A stretch of 64,000 bases of DNA from an uncultured Gammaproteobacteria bacterium (GCA_938084745.1 CALKEZ010000006.1:195007-259006), one strand, 5' to 3'. Shown: positions 1,539 through 8,850, counted from the stretch's first letter. Notes: generated by a model from the letters alone, not told the origin. Numbers and translations are program-made.

Positions 1539-2033
1539 TTATTTGGCATTACCTGAGGTAAAAGGACCGATTCTTATCAAGTATTCAGAATCATGCTGTC
1601 CGTCAAAATGACGTTCATGATCGAATACCCGCGATTCCTGCATTCCTGCATTCAGGTCATCTGCCAAACGCTTGAATAATGACCGCGATGCTTGATTAGA
1701 CTCGGTAATGGTTGTTTCTATATTCGCTATGCGATTACATTGAGGACGTTGAAGTATGTGCTGTAACATCTTATTGGCGATCCCGAGACCGCGTCTTTCC
1801 TGATCAACTGCGACTTGCCAAATAAACAAGGTATCGATCCGTTCAGGGATGATATATCCCGAAATAAAACCGACTAACTCCCCGTCATACTCGGCTGCAA
1901 CTGAGGTCTTAGCAAAATGACTACATTGCAGCAAATTACAGTAAACAGAGTTTGGGTCTAACGGTGGACAATTCGCGACTAAACGAAACACCGACATTCC
2001 ATCCTCAGACATTGGTAAACGTAGTGTTAGCAT
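1539..2033 (-). CDS. ectA: L-2,4-diaminobutyrate acetyltransferase (EctA, GNAT fold)
   Basis: 164-aa ORF with an EctA-like pattern (LDPNSVYCNLLQCSHF, DTLFIWQVAVDQERRGLGIANKML, ETTITESNQAS, LIRIGPF). It sits 60 nt upstream of ectB on the same strand. Confidence 0.9.
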   Translation of the reverse strand: MLTLRLPMSEDGMSVFRLVANCPPLDPNSVYCNLLQCSHFAKTSVAAEYDGELVGFISGYIIPERIDTLFIWQVAVDQERRGLGIANKMLQHILQRPQCNRIANIETTITESNQASRSLFKRLADDLNAGMQESRVFDHERHFDGQHDSEYLIRIGPFTSGNAK

Positions 2034-2481
2034 AGAAATATACCGCTAGCTAAGCACCTGATAACTTTCACATCCATCATATTATTTAGAATACTAATTA
2101 ATTTAATCACTCAACTTACAGATATAAATAGCGCAATACCTATATTAAACCTGTGTTTTGTTTCAGTATTATTTAGTACCTGTTAATTATTTGCATAGTA
2201 CACTAAATATATAAAAAGTCCATGTTTTACAAGGGAATAAGTGTAAATCTCCCCGAAAGATAGCGAAAACCCCTTCAAATTGCTGATCCTTAGTAAAGAC
2301 CATTCTCTGCCCGGCAGACACAATAATAGAAAGGAATGAAGGACCGTATTCTTGAATGATGTCTCAGATCGAGGTTGTGTCAGGTTCATGCTGCGGCTGA
2401 TCCAACGCTATCTGTATCAATTTTATAATTTAAATAGTGAATCACGCTATAATCCAGACTGTTCAATAACCTTATAACGAA

Positions 2482-3000
2482 ATGACAGCGAACCGTATTG
2501 AAGAAGTACTCATTGCCCTGCGCCGGGTTATACGAGCGACTGATTTACATTCCAAACAATTAGTCAAAACAACCGGACTTACCGCCCCGCAAATCTTGTT
2601 GCTGCAAACTATTCGGGACAAAGGCGAAATCACTATTGGTGAAATCGCAAATAAAATGAGTCTTAGCCAGGCAACGGTGACCACCATCATCGATCGGTTA
2701 GAAAAACGTAAGCTCGTCTATCGTCAACGCTCGGAACAAGACAAACGTAAAGTGCATGCAAAATTAACGGATACGGCTACTGAAGTTTTAAAGAGCGCCC
2801 CTATTCCGCTACAAGATCGATTCTCACATCAATTTTCTGATCTTCAGGAATGGGAAAAAACCATGATAATTTCCGCATTACAACGCGTTGCCCAAATGAT
2901 GGATGCGCAGAATATCGACGCATCGCCCATGCTTGATGTAGGTATATTGGACAGGCAGGAAACATCCACAGAAATAACTAATAAAGAGGACGAGACATAA
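2482..3000 (+). CDS. ectR: MarR-family transcriptional regulator, EctR-like (divergent from ectAB)
   Basis: 172-aa ORF with a MarR winged-HTH core (LTAPQILLLQTIRDKGEITIGEIANKMSLSQATVTTIIDRLEKRKLVYRQRSEQDKRKV). It is divergently transcribed from ectA across a 448-bp AT-rich spacer, which is the arrangement known for EctR in halotolerant methylotrophs. Confidence 0.75.
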   Translation: MTANRIEEVLIALRRVIRATDLHSKQLVKTTGLTAPQILLLQTIRDKGEITIGEIANKMSLSQATVTTIIDRLEKRKLVYRQRSEQDKRKVHAKLTDTATEVLKSAPIPLQDRFSHQFSDLQEWEKTMIISALQRVAQMMDAQNIDASPMLDVGILDRQETSTEITNKEDET

Positions 3001-3499
3001 AGGAATGTTGTCTTTCATTTACAATCACAAATTCCATTGAAATAGTCGAGGCCTGATCCGGGCCCATCAAATACGGCAAGCGTTTGCTGATTTCCCAGAT
3101 ATAAAGACCTGACAATGGTCAGGACAATGCTTTTTCCCTGAATAAAGGTTCAAATCTGAACCTTTCCTCCGTTTATTGCTAAAAACCTAGCTATTTCAAG
3201 TAACTAGCAAACCCGCTTCATTCTTCAGTATGTCATTGAATCCTAAAGTATTTCATATCGATGCCGATAAAAACTTAACAAGACAGATTTCGGTTCGGGT
3301 TTAGTCCGTTCAGCAACAGCATAAGTAACGATATAAAGCCATATTTGCAGTGAAAAAGCGGTAAACTGTTTATTAATATGTTTTTTTTTGAGTAATAAAA
3401 AACAGCGATTGATTAGAAACAAGTTCATTAGTGAACCCTTTTCAGATTGCGAGTTAGATTTGAGTAACTAAATTTCATAACCAGTAAAGAACAAGGCCG

Positions 3500-3898
3500 A
3501 TGATAAAAATTGTTTATCGCGAAGGCGAGTTAGAAAATTTGTTAAGCGTTAGAAATAACTTCGTTGATTTAATAGAGCAGTACTCTGATAAATCGCATGA
3601 ACTTAACAGAAGCAAGATGCTAGGCAGTATTTTTGATACCGTTTTTTTTATTGGCATTTGCAATCTACGTGAGCAGATGCCTTCGGTAAAAGAAGTGTAT
3701 TTGAATGTGGGTGACTCAAGGAACAAGTCACTTAGAAACCTGGAATTGCTTGAAGAGATGAAAATTGTATCACGCCAGAATGACCAAGAGGATTCGCGCG
3801 TAAAACGGGTACGATTAACAGACAATTTTAGAAATGATTTTGAGATATTTGTAAAGCAATGGGTAGATTCAAGACAACCTGCTGTCGAATCTGCATAA
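3500..3898 (+). CDS. Small winged-helix (MarR-like) DNA-binding protein, unassigned family
   Basis: 132-aa ORF. The C-terminal half reads like an HTH plus wing (PSVKEVYLNVGDSRNKSLRNLELLEEMKIVSRQNDQEDSRVKRVRLT). It is co-directional with the two downstream paralogs and ends 46 nt before the first. The RBS is weak. Confidence 0.45.
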   Translation: MIKIVYREGELENLLSVRNNFVDLIEQYSDKSHELNRSKMLGSIFDTVFFIGICNLREQMPSVKEVYLNVGDSRNKSLRNLELLEEMKIVSRQNDQEDSRVKRVRLTDNFRNDFEIFVKQWVDSRQPAVESA

Positions 3899-3944
3899 AC
3901 GGAAATGAAGTGAACTACTATTTCAATTTATTGGAGATAACAAG

Positions 3945-4958
3945 ATGAATAACAATGTCGCTATAGATAATTTTATGGAAAGTGATGAACCGAGTACCTG
4001 GCTTGAGAGAGTCACTGAAACATTCCTCAAGAACAGGATTAAACGCGATTTGAAAGCAGCGACTAAAGTTCATCCCTGTATCATTAATAACCAGCGTGTA
4101 CTGGTTCATCAACATGGACTTGAATACAATAATCCGGAAGCCTATGAACAACTCAGGGCATATGCGGAAAAGAACTCTTTTGCAATAAAAGAAGACCAAC
4201 GCGTCAAAGGCAGCAAGATTATCAATTTTGAAAGACGTTTAGCCAATAGTCTCCCCCTATTGTTTCTGGCCAGCGGTATTTTTATGTCTGGTACAGCAGC
4301 TGCGGGCGATATTGGTGGCAAGAAATCCGGTATTAGTGTGATGTCCGATATTGAAGTGACCGGTACCTATGACCGTAATGATCGCGCTTATAGTCAGGAA
4401 GATGGCAAACGTTTTATCACCAACCCTTATGGCGAAACGGAGTCTATCCTTGCGGTCGCTGCAGAGACTAAAGCAAAAGGTAAGCTTAAACGCGTTAGTA
4501 CTCGCAAAATTAAAATGCCTTCTGGCTATGTCGGTGGCTTTATCAATAAGTATGAGCACACCTTTGCAAATGGCCAGACCTTTAGCTACTACGAGGGTGA
4601 CGGATTTGGTGCTCTCGGTTACCACGCGGGTGAAGGCAAGGTCGTGTTGGATGTACTCGTCGGTGGTGGTGCGTTTTCTGCGCCAAAACTGTGGGGACCT
4701 TATGATCAGTTGCTGGGAGATAAAGACAATTCGTCCATGCAGTTAATGATGGGTGATGGCAGTAAAGACGGCATGGGCCTTTTAAAAGCATCGTACGCGA
4801 TTGGTTACACTGCAGTCCTGGCTGAAGAAGATTACTCTAGCCTGGGTAACGCATACGGTACTGCTGTTAATGACACAGTAAGAGAAATGATTGCCAGTGG
4901 CAGCAACCCGAATATGAACCCTCGGCAACTGAAATCAGTGACGGCAAGATCTGATTAG
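3945..4958 (+). CDS. Bitopic membrane protein, paralog A (shared N-domain, TM helix, Gly-rich ectodomain)
   Basis: 337-aa ORF with a good RBS (GGAGATAACAAG before ATG). The N-terminal ~95 aa align to the next gene (VHPCII..LV.QHGLE..P..Y.QL.AYA......KED.R). A hydrophobic helix LPLLFLASGIFMSGTAAAG follows. The C-terminal domain matched no family I recognise. Confidence 0.6.
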   Translation: MNNNVAIDNFMESDEPSTWLERVTETFLKNRIKRDLKAATKVHPCIINNQRVLVHQHGLEYNNPEAYEQLRAYAEKNSFAIKEDQRVKGSKIINFERRLANSLPLLFLASGIFMSGTAAAGDIGGKKSGISVMSDIEVTGTYDRNDRAYSQEDGKRFITNPYGETESILAVAAETKAKGKLKRVSTRKIKMPSGYVGGFINKYEHTFANGQTFSYYEGDGFGALGYHAGEGKVVLDVLVGGGAFSAPKLWGPYDQLLGDKDNSSMQLMMGDGSKDGMGLLKASYAIGYTAVLAEEDYSSLGNAYGTAVNDTVREMIASGSNPNMNPRQLKSVTARSD

Positions 4959-4994
4959 TAATATGCAGCGCATGGACAAGGGAAGCTAATCATC

Positions 4995-5885
4995 ATGAAT
5001 GAAGTAACAAGTGTTTTAAAAGATCTTGGCCGAATCGAAGCACAAAAAAATCAAACCAACTGGATTGATCGGATAGTGCATTCACTGAAGCTAAAGAATA
5101 AACAGCAAGCGATGGTTCACCCTTGTATCATTGATGGACGCCATACACTAGTTTATGAGCATGGCCTGGAACAGAAAGCGCCGGATTCATTCCAACAAAT
5201 AGTTGCGTTTGCCAAGGCACAAGACTACCAGCTAAAGGAAGATCGGCGCTCTGACTTTCTGGAAGGTATTCAGCGTGTCAAGAATCGTCGACGTGCCAAT
5301 GTTGTATCGGTGATGATGTTAACCGCTGGTCTAATGTCGCAAACGGCACAGGCCAAATCGGATGATGCACATGATAATGAGATTTTTGTCAGCAGCGATG
5401 TAACAAGCACGCAAGCTACAGCTGGCTTTGATTTTGACATTGATGCTTACCACACTAAAGAAGAACTTGCTGCTGGGTTACTGGGCTGGATAAACAATCA
5501 TTCATCCTTTAGCTATGATATTAATAATATCCCGGATATTAAAAAAGTCTCTGCCAAGAAAATTGCTGAAGTCGCTTTTGGTGGAGAATTACCCAAGGCA
5601 GTCAACCCGGAGAGCTTAAAAATATTCGGCCTCTATAACTTTAATGAAAAGGCAGTTTATCTGCTCGATTCAATCGACCTTGATAGTAAGGAGGGCAAAG
5701 GCATTCTGTTGCATGAACTGGTTCATTATTTACAATACCAGACAGGGGTAGACAAAGACACACAGTGCAAGAATGAACTCGAATCTCTGGCCTATGTGCT
5801 GGAAGCGAAGTTTCTGGAATCTAATCACCACCGACACAATATTACCGCTTCACATATAGACAAGGTCAGTCAGTGCAGCATTTAA
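4995..5885 (+). CDS. Bitopic membrane protein, paralog B, with HExxH metallopeptidase-like ectodomain
   Basis: 296-aa ORF. It has the same N-domain as paralog A (MVHPCIIDGRHTLVYEHGLE...KEDRR), then a basic stretch plus TM (NRRRANVVSVMMLTAGLMSQTAQA). The C-terminal domain carries GILLHELVHYLQYQ, with HELVH at nt 5712-5726. Confidence 0.6.
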   Translation: MNEVTSVLKDLGRIEAQKNQTNWIDRIVHSLKLKNKQQAMVHPCIIDGRHTLVYEHGLEQKAPDSFQQIVAFAKAQDYQLKEDRRSDFLEGIQRVKNRRRANVVSVMMLTAGLMSQTAQAKSDDAHDNEIFVSSDVTSTQATAGFDFDIDAYHTKEELAAGLLGWINNHSSFSYDINNIPDIKKVSAKKIAEVAFGGELPKAVNPESLKIFGLYNFNEKAVYLLDSIDLDSKEGKGILLHELVHYLQYQTGVDKDTQCKNELESLAYVLEAKFLESNHHRHNITASHIDKVSQCSI

Positions 5886-5925
5886 CAACGCGAGCTTCTA
5901 AAGTCGCTGCCTGATTATTGTAGTT

Positions 5926-6156
5926 CTAGTCGCGGTTTTGCCACCATTCGAGAAATTCAGAAAAACTGACCATGCCCGTATGATTTTTATCAACCTTATC
6001 GAAGATATGTGTCTTTTTGGTCAAATCGATACTGCTGTCTAATTCATCTATCATCAGACAGAACTCATCCCAGCCAATGGTTTCATTTTCATCCGTATCG
6101 TATTTATCAAATCTTTTTCTGATAGCTGCTGTTTCATTTGCAGATAACTTTTTCAT
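5926..6156 (-). CDS. EF-hand calcium-binding protein (two loops)
   Basis: 76-aa ORF with two canonical 12-residue EF loops: DTDENETIGWDE and DKNHTGMVSFSE. Confidence 0.75.
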   Translation of the reverse strand: MKKLSANETAAIRKRFDKYDTDENETIGWDEFCLMIDELDSSIDLTKKTHIFDKVDKNHTGMVSFSEFLEWWQNRD

Positions 6157-6192
6157 TATACTCCCTTGTAATTGAAGGTTGAATTTTTGTAT

Positions 6193-6627
6193 TTATTGGC
6201 AAGCTTTAGGCAGGAGATCCCTGGACAAGTTACCACTACATGACCAGTCTAATTTATCATTTTTAACGCTTGGCTTTAAGATAATTTTTTTTCCATTAAT
6301 ATCCGCTGCAATATTCACCACGTCTTTATTAATAAAATAAACCGTTATCGCCCCGGGACCATCTACGCCAACATCAATATTCTTTACCAGCGATTTGCTG
6401 AAATCAATGTCGATTTTTTTACCTGACTTTTGCCAGTCCCCGACATCAGGCAGTACACCTTTCTCTTGCCAATACTCTTTAACGGCAATTTTGTATTTTA
6501 TCGCTGTAGACAATCCCTGTAAGACCTTGGCAGCATCAGTTAAATCAAGTTTTTTGGAATCCGTAAAAACAAAATTCCAGCTAAGAACAACCGCAAAGAG
6601 AATTAAAGCAATAAGTGTCTTGTTCAT
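6193..6627 (-). CDS. Pilin-domain protein lacking a prepilin (class III) leader
   Basis: 144-aa ORF. Its middle resembles the pilin alpha1-C region (IAVKEYWQEKGVLPD). Its C-terminus has a type IV pilin-like disulfide loop (WSCSGNLSRDLLPKACQ). The N-terminus is an ordinary signal or anchor (MNKTLIALILFAVVLSW) with no G/FTLIE motif. Confidence 0.6.
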   Translation of the reverse strand: MNKTLIALILFAVVLSWNFVFTDSKKLDLTDAAKVLQGLSTAIKYKIAVKEYWQEKGVLPDVGDWQKSGKKIDIDFSKSLVKNIDVGVDGPGAITVYFINKDVVNIAADINGKKIILKPSVKNDKLDWSCSGNLSRDLLPKACQ

Positions 6628-6630
6628 AAT

Positions 6631-7338
6631 TCACGCCTTTGCCATGGCAACCAGTGTTTTGCGTACCTCTCCTGCCGTAGTAACCGATTCATTAAAATTG
6701 ATGCGATGAATCCGTGCGCCAACCCGAAGATGAAACCCTTCGCTATCAATACCCACCATCGCTGGAACCGCTGATGCATCAAGGGGTATAGCAAAAACAT
6801 CACAATAATGCCGGATTGCTTCAAGATGATCGGCATTCATATGATCGAACATTTTTTTCTCTTCATCAAGACTGAATGGATTACTCAACAGAAAATCATC
6901 TTTTTCGATCCAGTAAATTTGACCAAAACCACCGATGAAACGAACACGAACAGGCTTGATACAATAAAAATTGAAATCGTGCGTCTGATGATAACCGCGT
7001 GATTGAGGAAAGAAGTTATAGTAGCGCTCGGCACTATCGGTATCATCCTTATCAAGCAGCTGCGCATCGCCAATGTAGGTAACGCGTCCAACAGTCTGTA
7101 GATCATCGGCCTCACCTTCGGTGACTGTTAATGATACCTTGGGGTCGGATAAGATATTTTTAGTATGCTGGGCGATGGTACTGATCAAAATTATCGGTAG
7201 ACCCGCTTCATTTAAACAATACGGCACTATCGAACCAAACGGATATCCCTCGACATCGACAGAATGTGTACTCAGAATCCCTTGATACTCTGATAATAAT
7301 AGTGCTCTTGCCTGCTTTTCTTTTATGTCTTTATTCAT
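6631..7338 (-). CDS. HugZ-family / pyridoxamine-5-phosphate-oxidase-like protein with DUF2470-type C-terminus
   Basis: 235-aa ORF with a PNPOx-like split barrel (GILSTHSVDVEGYPFGSIVPY, PKVSLTV) and a C-terminal MNADHLEAIRHYC motif typical of DUF2470. Confidence 0.8.
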   Translation of the reverse strand: MNKDIKEKQARALLLSEYQGILSTHSVDVEGYPFGSIVPYCLNEAGLPIILISTIAQHTKNILSDPKVSLTVTEGEADDLQTVGRVTYIGDAQLLDKDDTDSAERYYNFFPQSRGYHQTHDFNFYCIKPVRVRFIGGFGQIYWIEKDDFLLSNPFSLDEEKKMFDHMNADHLEAIRHYCDVFAIPLDASAVPAMVGIDSEGFHLRVGARIHRINFNESVTTAGEVRKTLVAMAKA

Positions 7339-7434
7339 AGAATGATGTTAACAGATATACCTAAAAGCCATATGATGAAAATCAGATAAACGACACGTAT
7401 AAAAAATCCAGTTCTGTAGATGTGGGTAATATAA

Positions 7435-8850
7435 ATGGGTCAAGAAATAGAATCTGATATTTTGTCACCGTATGATTTTAGCGTTTTTTCAAAAAACCTG
7501 AATGATGAAACCCGGCTACTGGCCGATTTTTTCGACAACAACACTTTTTCCAGTGAAGGGCCTGTCGGTGGTTATGAAATCGAGGCAATACTGGTCAACG
7601 GCGCTGGTCAGCCGGCATCGATAAACCAGGACTTTCTGGAAAAAATGAACAACCCCTTAGTCGTGCATGAACTCGCCGCATTTAATGTCGAGATTAACAG
7701 CCTGCCGGTTTACCTGAAAAATAATGCCTTAACACAGATGCAGACGAATCTTCAGGCAACATGGGATGCTTGTCGCGTGGTCGCACGCAATTCCTCAGCT
7801 GATTTAATGATGATCGGCATATTACCGACTCTGCAGGAAGAACAGTTAACGCTGGCAAACATGTCGCAACTCAACCGATATAAGGCATTAAACGAGCAAA
7901 TCTTCAAATTACGAAACGGGCAACCTATCAAGCTAGACATATCAGGCAAGGAAAAAATCAAGGCGACACACCACGACGTTATGTTTGAATCGGCCTGTAC
8001 CTCATTTCAACTTCATTTACAGGTGCCCTACTCCAGAGCCGTCGATTTTTACAATGTTTCGATCATGTTATCGGCACCTATTGTTGCAGCAACCGCAAAC
8101 TCGCCCTACTTGTTTGGTCATGAACTCTGGGATGAAACGCGTATCCCATTGTTTGAACAATCTGTTGAAATCGGTAGCGCTGATTATCGCCGAGTCACTT
8201 TTGGTAGCGGTTATGCACAACATACTCTGATGGAATGCTTTGATGAAAATCTCGCGCATTACCCGGTACTGCTACCATTGAAAGAGCAGGATAGAGACGA
8301 GCACTTAAGCCACTTAAGATTTCATAATGGTACCATCTGGCGCTGGAACCGACCGTTAATCGGTTTTGAAAATAAACAGGCGCCGCACATACGTATTGAA
8401 CATCGTGTCATCGCTGCAGGTCCGAGTGTGATAGACAGTATTGCTAATGCGGCCTTTTATTTTGGTCTGGCACATGCTTATGCCAATGAGGCAGAAAGTC
8501 TTCAGCAAGAACTCCCATTTCAAATAGCCAAGGAGAATTTTTATAACTGTGCTAAACATGGCCTTGATGCAGAACTGTTCTGGCCGGAGCATGGCAAAAC
8601 ATCAGTCAGAAACCTGCTCTTAGATAGATTGATACCGGCGGCGAGAGACGGGCTGAAGGCAATCAATATTAATGTCGATGAAATTGATAGATATATGACG
8701 ATTATTCAGGAACGCGTTAAGAGCCAGCAGAATGGTGCCAATTGGCAACGCCGGTGGGTTCATAGACACGGCAAAAATATGCAAGGCCTGACCTGTGCCT
8801 ATTTGCAACAACAAAACAGCGGCCTGCCAGTACATAAATGGGATGTATAA
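7435..8850 (+). CDS. Glutamate--cysteine-ligase family 2 (GCS2) type carboxylate-amine ligase
   Basis: 471-aa ORF with GCS2-like regions (GGYEIEAILV, TSFQLHLQV, ATANSPYLFGHELWDETRIPLFEQS). Confidence 0.75.
   Translation: MGQEIESDILSPYDFSVFSKNLNDETRLLADFFDNNTFSSEGPVGGYEIEAILVNGAGQPASINQDFLEKMNNPLVVHELAAFNVEINSLPVYLKNNALTQMQTNLQATWDACRVVARNSSADLMMIGILPTLQEEQLTLANMSQLNRYKALNEQIFKLRNGQPIKLDISGKEKIKATHHDVMFESACTSFQLHLQVPYSRAVDFYNVSIMLSAPIVAATANSPYLFGHELWDETRIPLFEQSVEIGSADYRRVTFGSGYAQHTLMECFDENLAHYPVLLPLKEQDRDEHLSHLRFHNGTIWRWNRPLIGFENKQAPHIRIEHRVIAAGPSVIDSIANAAFYFGLAHAYANEAESLQQELPFQIAKENFYNCAKHGLDAELFWPEHGKTSVRNLLLDRLIPAARDGLKAININVDEIDRYMTIIQERVKSQQNGANWQRRWVHRHGKNMQGLTCAYLQQQNSGLPVHKWDV

Follow-up and report, generated by a model that had tools for sequence, protein, structure and literature searches.

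Tandem DUF3579 proteins of an uncultured gammaproteobacterium carry a signal-peptide-like segment behind a conserved N-terminal domain

The window analysed here is a 64,000-nucleotide (nt) stretch of DNA from an uncultured Gammaproteobacteria bacterium (GCA_938084745.1, CALKEZ010000006.1:195007-259006), which carries between positions 3500 and 5885 three open reading frames (ORFs) on the + strand, here named g1, g2 and g3. The first, g1 (3500-3898), codes for a divergent MarR/SlyA-like winged-helix protein of 132 amino acids (aa); g2 (3945-4958) codes for a 337-aa precursor composed of a DUF3579 domain, a signal-peptide-like segment and an undescribed domain predicted to be periplasmic; g3 (4995-5885) codes for a 296-aa precursor in which the same first two elements are followed by a putative HExxH metallopeptidase of the DUF6647 type. 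Residue numbers count from each annotated start. The genes are separated by gaps of 46 nt (g1-g2) and 36 nt (g2-g3), and Shine-Dalgarno-like sequences are found ahead of the annotated starts of g2 and g3. At 90% identity clustering, full-length conservation extends to 160 clusters for g2 and 181 for g3; nearly all of the homologs are unnamed and come from uncultured marine Gammaproteobacteria. A preliminary description of this DNA had recognised a small winged helix-turn-helix protein followed by tandem paralogs with unrelated C-terminal domains, one Gly-rich and the other carrying HExxH; the three-gene cluster is indeed real, its ORFs are conserved, and the features described correspond to g1, to the g2 C-domain and to the HELVH sequence of g3, respectively. 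Scans with PADLOC and PHROGs found no defence or phage families, and an Rfam scan of 2000-7500 returned nothing except a chance snoRNA match (E=0.79). As for the two larger proteins, we propose that they are exported by the Sec pathway to the periplasm and made as unusual precursors, a proposal for and against which we find the case evenly balanced.

The relationship between g2 and g3 is evident in a BLASTP comparison (E=3e-19, 29% identity across 180 aa); for their N-terminal domains alone, aligned with MAFFT among 26 sequences from both families, the identity is 33%. All 26 share V-H-P-C, a Leu and an Arg, and K-E-D is conserved in almost all. Thus the paralogy already noticed by eye survives a proper alignment, and VHPC falls where it had been placed, at aa 42-45 in g2 and 41-44 in g3; the identity of about 40% given at that time was too high. 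It was also wrong to assign the shared domain to no known family, since it corresponds to Pfam DUF3579 (PF12112): with 26.5 bits (E=9e-6) g2 passes the gathering cut-off of 25, while g3 taken alone reaches 21.8 bits, under the same cut-off, and is tied to the family by its paralogy with g2. The domain extends over 3987-4214 on the + strand in g2 (aa 15-90), where it is predicted to be cytoplasmic, and over 5046-5258 on the + strand in g3 (aa 18-88), where it is modelled with a predicted local distance difference test score (pLDDT) of about 80. A profile of the g2 family also finds the nuclear magnetic resonance structure of an uncharacterised protein, PDB 2L9D (E=6.4e-8), and the g3 family profile finds the same entry at E=0.021. 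A literature search on DUF3579, PF12112 and 2L9D found nothing; since the family is itself uncharacterised, the match is not one to a well-characterised family, and in this respect it leaves the preliminary description intact.

A profile search with the N-domain in 1.84 billion proteins collected 154 representatives at E<=1e-3, some of them stand-alone proteins of about 100 aa and the others 260-600 aa long with DUF3579 at the N-terminus. The motifs W..R, PC, (E/K)EDRR and ERR are common to the N-domains of g2 and g3 and to the stand-alone members. The latter, which appear to be cytoplasmic, mostly have x-P-C or no Cys, the His of H-P-C being largely confined to the fused forms. Their gene contexts differ among Acidithiobacillus, Neisseria and Legionella and give no single functional lead. 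On the Acidithiobacillus ferrooxidans plasmid pACF1 (locus L071, 992-5303) the DUF3579 gene is the last of an operon with hcp, an FAD-oxidoreductase gene (hcr) and nnrS, overlaps the end of nnrS and has a Crp/Fnr regulator alongside; this context hints at a link of the Cys-containing domain to nitrosative or redox stress. In Neisseria gonorrhoeae (locus L069, 4971-5813) a 280-aa ORF joins DUF3579 to a C-terminal domain that by eye is a GNAT acetyltransferase, and the gene is divergent from pyrB- and pyrI-looking genes; the PLSDB "plasmid" entry from which it comes is 2.17 Mb long and is thus evidently a chromosome. In Legionella the stand-alone DUF3579 gene adjoins pssA.

Behind the DUF3579 domain both proteins carry a hydrophobic segment, ERRLANSLPLLFLASGIFMSGTAAA in g2 (4230-4304, + strand, aa 96-120) and RVKNRRRANVVSVMMLTAGLMSQTAQA in g3 (5274-5354, + strand, aa 94-120), for which cleavage is predicted after Ala120. 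The former reads ERR-LANS-LPLLFLASGIFM-SGTAAA and continues with GD, the latter KNRRR-AN-VVSVMMLTAGLM-SQTAQA, followed by KS. In each, a basic motif leads into a core of 11-12 apolar residues, and a six-residue polar c-region closes the segment with A-x-A (118-120). This is the anatomy of a Sec signal for signal peptidase I, in which the n-region is basic, 7-15 apolar residues make up the h-region, and the polar c-region has small residues at -3 and -1. The location is not that of an ordinary Sec signal, which stands at the extreme N-terminus: the segment begins at about residue 95, behind a folded domain.

Conservation follows the same pattern. Among 37 homologs of g2, residue 120 is Ala in 35 and Ser in two, residue 118 is mostly Ala or Val, with a few Ser, Thr or Leu, and E96, R97, R98 and P104 are invariant; among 37 homologs of g3, Ala120 is found in all of them and residue 118 is Ala in 24 and Val in 13. 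By comparison, few positions in either protein vary as much as residue 119 (entropy of 3.0 bits in g3) and those from 121 onward. The same arrangement recurs in the other DUF3579 fusions, where 80 of 81 representatives have a hydrophobic core directly behind a basic RR motif, with a median uncharged stretch of 18 aa. A motif (A/V/S/T/L)-x-A is found behind this core in 67 of the 80, to be compared with 55.6 +/- 3.2 in 1000 composition-preserving shuffles, which reach a maximum of 66, and with 22 of 80 in a control window placed 40 residues downstream. The short apolar core and the conserved (-3,-1) motif suggest a cleavable signal peptide rather than a stable bitopic anchor, and signal peptidase I is accordingly predicted, from these sequence features, to cut after Ala120 in both g2 and g3. 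The basic stretch and the single hydrophobic segment had been correctly recognised beforehand; what does not hold is their description as a transmembrane helix, given the 11-12 apolar residues and the A-x-A c-region. The isoelectric points (pI) also differ along the precursors, being about 9 for the N-domains and 5.1-5.8 for the mature domains.

Two other accounts of the segment were considered and rejected. The first is that g2 and g3 are ordinary preproteins with mis-called starts; no in-frame start codon is present just upstream of the hydrophobic segment in either gene, the invariant Val95 of g3 is encoded by GTC, the N-domain is conserved in frame and the annotated starts have ribosome-binding sites. 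The second is a Tat signal; the (S/T)-R-R-x-F-L-K consensus is absent, and the g2 family has an invariant E-R-R followed by (M/L)-A-K. The ERR motif also ends the stand-alone DUF3579 proteins and thus belongs to the domain, and in the g3 family the Arg residues ahead of the core vary (RRR, RHH, KGQ, SSC).

The domains found behind DUF3579 and the segment are of several kinds: two HExxH classes, which account for most fused representatives, the g2 domain in single or tandem copies, a multihaem CxxCH cytochrome and the outer-membrane barrel PagP, the latter recognised at 52 bits. PagP must leave the inner membrane to function, and as cargo it would have to be set free to arrive in the outer membrane, which supports release. 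At 90% identity the PagP and the cytochrome fusion each form a single-member cluster, found on one contig, and for this reason they count only as supporting evidence. A third class of DUF3579 fusions, which is larger, comprises the representatives P0282, P0288, P0303, P0322, P0344 and about 30 others; a signal peptide and a linker are followed by a distinct HExxH domain, with SPADALLHELLHA...YPY.HE...C..C at the C-terminus, for which no Pfam match was found. A distant g3 homolog (locus L005, 1-7894) lies directly downstream of a type-I-secretion-like cluster with genes for a 5850-aa protein and an OEP, for HlyD-like adaptors, and for a 712-aa protein that weakly matches Peptidase_M50, the site-2 protease family; this vicinity may be a coincidence.

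The mature part of g3 (5355-5882, + strand, aa 121-296) is a 176-aa domain and a putative zinc metallopeptidase. It contains HELVH at aa 240-244 (nt 5712-5726), where H240, E241 and H244 are invariant in the 37 homologs and conform to the HExxH pattern; Cys258 and Cys294 are also invariant, as are E261 and E270, which are candidate third metal ligands. Against DUF6647 (PF20352) g3 scores 21.8 bits (E=1.7e-4), just short of the gathering cut-off of 24.1. Several full-length g3 homologs carry a precomputed PF20352 match, and the family matches 13 of 85 representatives at E<=0.01, the best at 3e-8. DUF6647 has been proposed as a member of peptidase clan MA (PMC11467057), and the g3 C-domain is, on these sequence matches and motifs, a probable zinc metallopeptidase of that clan.

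The mature part of g2 (4305-4955, + strand, aa 121-337; 217 aa) is predicted to be periplasmic and is of a different nature. It contains 14% Gly and the conserved motifs YYEG(E/D)GF..LG, LWGPYDQ and DGMG, and no relative was found for it in Pfam, NCBIfam or the PDB; its C-domain of about 180 aa constitutes a separate small family of 238 clusters. Two Cys residues of this family are present or absent together in the 37 homologs compared, since 22 of 22 sequences that have one have both and the other 15 of 15 have neither; such a distribution suggests a disulfide and hence a periplasmic location. In two other loci, L062 and L066, the domain is found behind an ordinary N-terminal signal peptide or in a lipoprotein with a LysM-like C-terminus. 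Here tandem paralogs of the g2 C-domain without DUF3579 form pairs (L062, 9983-11694; L066, 7446-9161), each made of one protein with a plain signal peptide and one lipoprotein carrying the LysM-like C-terminus, and from these paralogs it can be supposed that the g2 domain may associate with the cell wall. The L066 pair adjoins a 641-aa ORF whose sequence, judged by eye, resembles FHA repeats, a transmembrane segment and a lytic-transglycosylase-like motif, and a VWA-FHA protein is encoded upstream of g2 homologs in eight other loci (L004 and others).

The third gene product, g1, falls under the family cut-offs in all comparisons: it scores 16.6 bits against Pfam HTH_27 (E=0.0098; cut-off 22.2), and it matches NCBIfam SlyA at E=5e-4 and the SlyA structure 1lj9 of the PDB at E=0.002. 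With a profile made from 14 orthologs, 20 of 24 PDB matches are MarR/SlyA chains (E=0.002-0.3), aligned at an equivalent helix-wing position, and on these sequence matches g1 is probably a divergent MarR/SlyA-like winged-helix protein. With tblastn it is detected in 17 loci, immediately ahead of g2 in each of them, and only beside g2 homologs at least 61% identical, that is in the clade close to the window.

The DNA upstream of g1 contains a candidate sigma-70 promoter for g1-g2-g3 (3447-3474, + strand), with a -35 hexamer TTGCGA (3447-3452), a 16-nt spacer and a -10 hexamer TAAATT (3469-3474); the two blocks are conserved in an alignment of 10 orthologous upstream regions, were read by eye and are absent from the list of a promoter scan. 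Just 5' of the -35 hexamer is the palindrome GTTCATTAGTGAAC (3423-3436, + strand), of the form GTTCA-N4-TGAAC, whose half-sites are invariant or nearly so in the same 10 regions; g1, or a different regulator that acts as a dimer, could use it as an operator. A hairpin downstream of the gene preceding g1, ectR, AAAGGTTCA-AATC-TGAACCTTT (3144-3165, + strand), has a perfect 9-bp stem and a 4-nt loop and holds a second perfect copy of GTTCA-N4-TGAAC (3148-3161); the 64-kb window contains only these two, both in the spacer between ectR and g1. From its sequence the hairpin may be the terminator of ectR, a second operator, or both. In this clade, g1 probably regulates the operon through the conserved palindrome beside the -35 hexamer.

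On the left, the cluster is preceded by ectB (171-1478, - strand), ectA (1539-2033, - strand) and the MarR-type ectR-like gene (2482-3000, + strand). On the right, convergent to g3, are genes for a 76-aa protein with an EF-hand pair (5926-6156, - strand) and for a 144-aa protein with a pilin domain that lacks a canonical prepilin leader (6193-6627, - strand), and then a HugZ-like gene (6631-7338). Nearly all close relatives keep the pilin and HugZ-like genes in synteny with the cluster; the EF-hand gene is detected in only about half of them and a GCS2 gene in some. Where the g2 homolog shares 69% identity or more (13 loci, L009-L021 and L026), g2 and g3 adjoin HugZ-like genes, and also the pilin gene except in L021; g1 is detectable in 12 of the 13, the exception being L018. 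Loci with a g2 homolog 66-67% identical have g1-g2 at the same site and lack g3, and homologs of g2 and g3 at greater distance occur singly, in varied surroundings and without g1. Thus the three genes are not an obligate unit, and g1 is not an obligate partner. Neighbour clustering for the distant g2 homologs, in which the high-GC loci contribute many spurious ORFs, gives housekeeping synteny (BirA, CoaX, NagZ-like, ABC transporter), the sole recurrent neighbour of another kind being the VWA-FHA protein encoded upstream in the eight loci mentioned.

The cluster had been thought to lie in AT-richer DNA and to be possibly an accessory insertion. The guanine-cytosine (GC) content is in fact 0.36 in the ectR-g1 spacer and in g1, so that the first statement holds for this part; it does not for g2 (0.45), g3 (0.42) and the whole of 3001-6160 (0.41), the window mean being 0.42. 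An accessory insertion is rejected, given the right-flank synteny in relatives and an overall GC content that is not low. Furthermore, tblastn found no ectB, ectA or ectR in flanks of up to 10 kb around related g1-g2-g3 loci, which indicates that the variable element is the left flank with its ectoine genes and not the cluster. The cluster is a stable feature of the lineage.

Taken together, several indications point to a periplasmic location of both C-domains: the Cys patterns, the types of cargo, the occurrence of the g2 domain behind plain signal peptides, and the pI values. According to the proposed mechanism, the folded, mildly basic DUF3579 domain of about 95 aa, with its invariant His-Pro-Cys, would stay in the cytoplasm, while the signal peptide, with its basic n-region, 11-12-residue h-region and 6-residue c-region, would insert with the N-terminus inside. 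Signal peptidase I would then cut after Ala120 and free the 176-aa clan MA zinc metallopeptidase (g3) and the 217-aa g2 domain, both soluble in the periplasm. The remnant of 120 aa, made of DUF3579 and the signal peptide, would be either freed or degraded by proteases of the RseP or SppA type. Such steps have precedents: RseP clears signal peptides and cleaves FecR (PMC8144685), and signal peptidase is a regulated site-1 protease for the anti-sigma factors RsiV and RsiP (PMC4183432, PMC8844934). The cytoplasmic domain would thus be an export-coupled regulatory or targeting module, in which His-Pro-Cys could be a ligand, metal or redox site, and by analogy with these systems its release into the cytoplasm as an export-coupled signal is plausible.

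A wider form of this proposal can be formulated, which we consider unlikely to be correct as a whole. It holds that DUF3579 with H-P-C and the signal peptide are a modular "domain-bearing signal peptide" used on several kinds of cargo (two metallopeptidase types, the g2 domain, the cytochrome and PagP); after cleavage by signal peptidase and by a site-2 protease or SppA, one copy of the domain would be freed for each exported molecule and would signal or regulate through His-Pro-Cys, as a bacterial counterpart of viral and eukaryotic long signal peptides.

Several points weigh against export with cleavage. We infer the cut from conservation alone, and 17-23 uncharged residues in a row could still be enough for an uncleaved anchor to cross the membrane. 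Three fused representatives have a T2SS-M-type domain (T2SSM_b), which is normally membrane-anchored. The PagP and cytochrome fusions are the single cases described above, and g1 is missing beside the distant g2 and g3 homologs. Finally, the AlphaFold2 models, obtained from 37-sequence alignments, are moderate for g3 (pLDDT 59) and poor for g2 (pLDDT 49); Foldseek against the PDB gives the minimal gluzincin selecase (4qhj) as the best fold match of g3, at a non-significant E=0.047 (probability 0.94), and nothing significant for g2.

Some of these observations are what would be expected if g2 and g3 were stable bitopic proteins, N-terminus inside and with an uncleaved anchor, whose DUF3579 domain relays a periplasmic signal in the manner of ToxR or of anti-sigma factors, perhaps by binding g1, as the preliminary description had suggested. 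The single hydrophobic segment and the periplasmic C-domain agree with that topology, the uncharged stretch of 20-23 aa in g2 and g3 could just cross the bilayer, g1 is adjacent in the close clade, and the three T2SS-M-like fusions would be in place. However, the resemblance to such signalling proteins is one of topology only: for the N-domains, Pfam and NCBIfam scans at E<=1 return just DUF3579 and neither a DNA-binding nor an anti-sigma domain, and a gene for a sigma factor was not encountered in any of the loci examined. In addition, an anchor leaves unexplained an invariant Ala at -1 and A or V at -3 within a variable linker, its apolar core would have just 11-12 residues, PagP as cargo needs release, and the distant homologs are without g1. 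We consider this explanation rather unlikely, yet it is the one that deserves most attention after our own.

An intermediate possibility, which seems to us improbable, is regulated proteolysis, with both proteins anchored at rest until signal peptidase cuts A-x-A on cue and a site-2 protease frees DUF3579 as the output. It would account for the same (-3,-1) signature and topology, and it can invoke the site-1 cleavage of RsiV and RsiP (PMC4183432, PMC8844934) and RseP (PMC8144685). Against this, the cargo (PagP, cytochrome, peptidases) resembles ordinary exported enzymes and not sensors, and the freed domain has no known partner. It is very improbable that DUF3579 only assists export in cis or serves as a pro-domain and, having no part in signalling, is degraded after cleavage, whether it acts as a holdase, as a handle for membrane targeting or as an inhibitor that holds back the peptidases before export like a cysteine switch: the HExxH domains on most fused representatives and a His largely specific to the fused forms would agree with it, but g2 and the cytochrome and PagP fusions keep HPC without HExxH, and a cytoplasmic zymogen lock is not obviously needed since Sec substrates cross the membrane unfolded.

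Both DUF3579 and DUF6647 are already catalogued families. What appears to be new is the use of DUF3579 with H-P-C as a recurrent module before cleavable-looking signal peptides, together with the family of the g2 C-domain and the link to a clade-specific MarR-like gene. If g2 and g3 are cleaved as proposed, they exemplify a reusable design of bacterial precursors, in which a folded cytoplasmic domain is placed ahead of a Sec signal peptide; to our knowledge, this layout is not covered by protein-export textbooks. Cleavage would also provide a first functional handle on DUF3579, an orphan family for which a structure has been solved and no function assigned. The g2 C-domain with its LWGPYDQ motif defines a new domain family, predicted to be periplasmic, and in an abundant group of marine Gammaproteobacteria that are uncultured the analysis places DUF6647 peptidases in the periplasm. 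If cleavage does not occur, the two proteins would be lineage-restricted, membrane-anchored periplasmic proteins from catalogued DUFs.

The comparison with known systems shows partial similarities in each case. g1 has the recognition helix and the wing with D-x-R...LT of MarR/SlyA proteins and differs from them in being short (132 aa) and in its divergent N-terminal dimerisation region. g3 shares with selecase, the minigluzincins and DUF6647 the invariant HELVH, conserved downstream Glu residues and a small alpha/beta fold; its DUF6647 score is just under the cut-off (21.8 vs 24.1) and its fold match to selecase (E=0.047) is not significant. Typical DUF3579 proteins are cytoplasmic, of about 100 aa, stand-alone or fused to GNAT and usually without the His (2L9D has K-P-R), whereas g2 and g3 have an invariant H-P-C and the domain is placed ahead of a signal peptide and an exported domain.

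Proteins of the ToxR/CadC type have the same order of elements, with a cytoplasmic N-domain, one hydrophobic segment and a periplasmic domain; however, their OmpR/PhoB-type winged-helix domain was not found in g2 or g3 by the Pfam and NCBIfam scans (E<=1), the DUF3579 domain is without a DNA-binding signature, and the hydrophobic segment looks cleavable. As for anti-sigma factors, no Pfam match to domains of the ZAS, RskA or RsiV types was found in g2 and g3, which have a single H-P-C and no C-x2-C such as the H-x3-C-x2-C motif of the ZAS type contains, and no sigma-factor gene, of the extracytoplasmic function (ECF) type or otherwise, appears around the cluster in the window or in the gene tables read for the other loci. 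Like RsiV and RsiP, g2 and g3 would be single-pass proteins with the N-terminus inside and a signal-peptidase-type site just outside the membrane, and their N-domain would possibly be freed by a site-2 protease; unlike RsiV and RsiP, their exported parts look like enzymes and not like ligand receptors, and neither an anti-sigma domain nor an ECF gene accompanies them.

Extended signal peptides with post-targeting roles are represented by the extended signal peptide region (ESPR) of autotransporters, of about 25 aa, and in viruses by Rem of mouse mammary tumour virus (MMTV) and by the stable signal peptide (SSP) of arenaviruses, of up to about 100 aa. As in these cases, the extra sequence of g2 and g3 is N-terminal to an n-h-c signal and would be on the cytoplasmic side after cleavage; we know of no ESPR or viral extension that derives from an independent domain family also occurring stand-alone, and a literature search turned up no case in which bacterial cargo of several kinds carries a folded Pfam domain at this place. 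By analogy, then, the closest regulatory parallel of g2 and g3 would be signal peptidase cleavage of the RsiV type, and the way they work would most resemble that of a Sec preprotein with an extended signal peptide.

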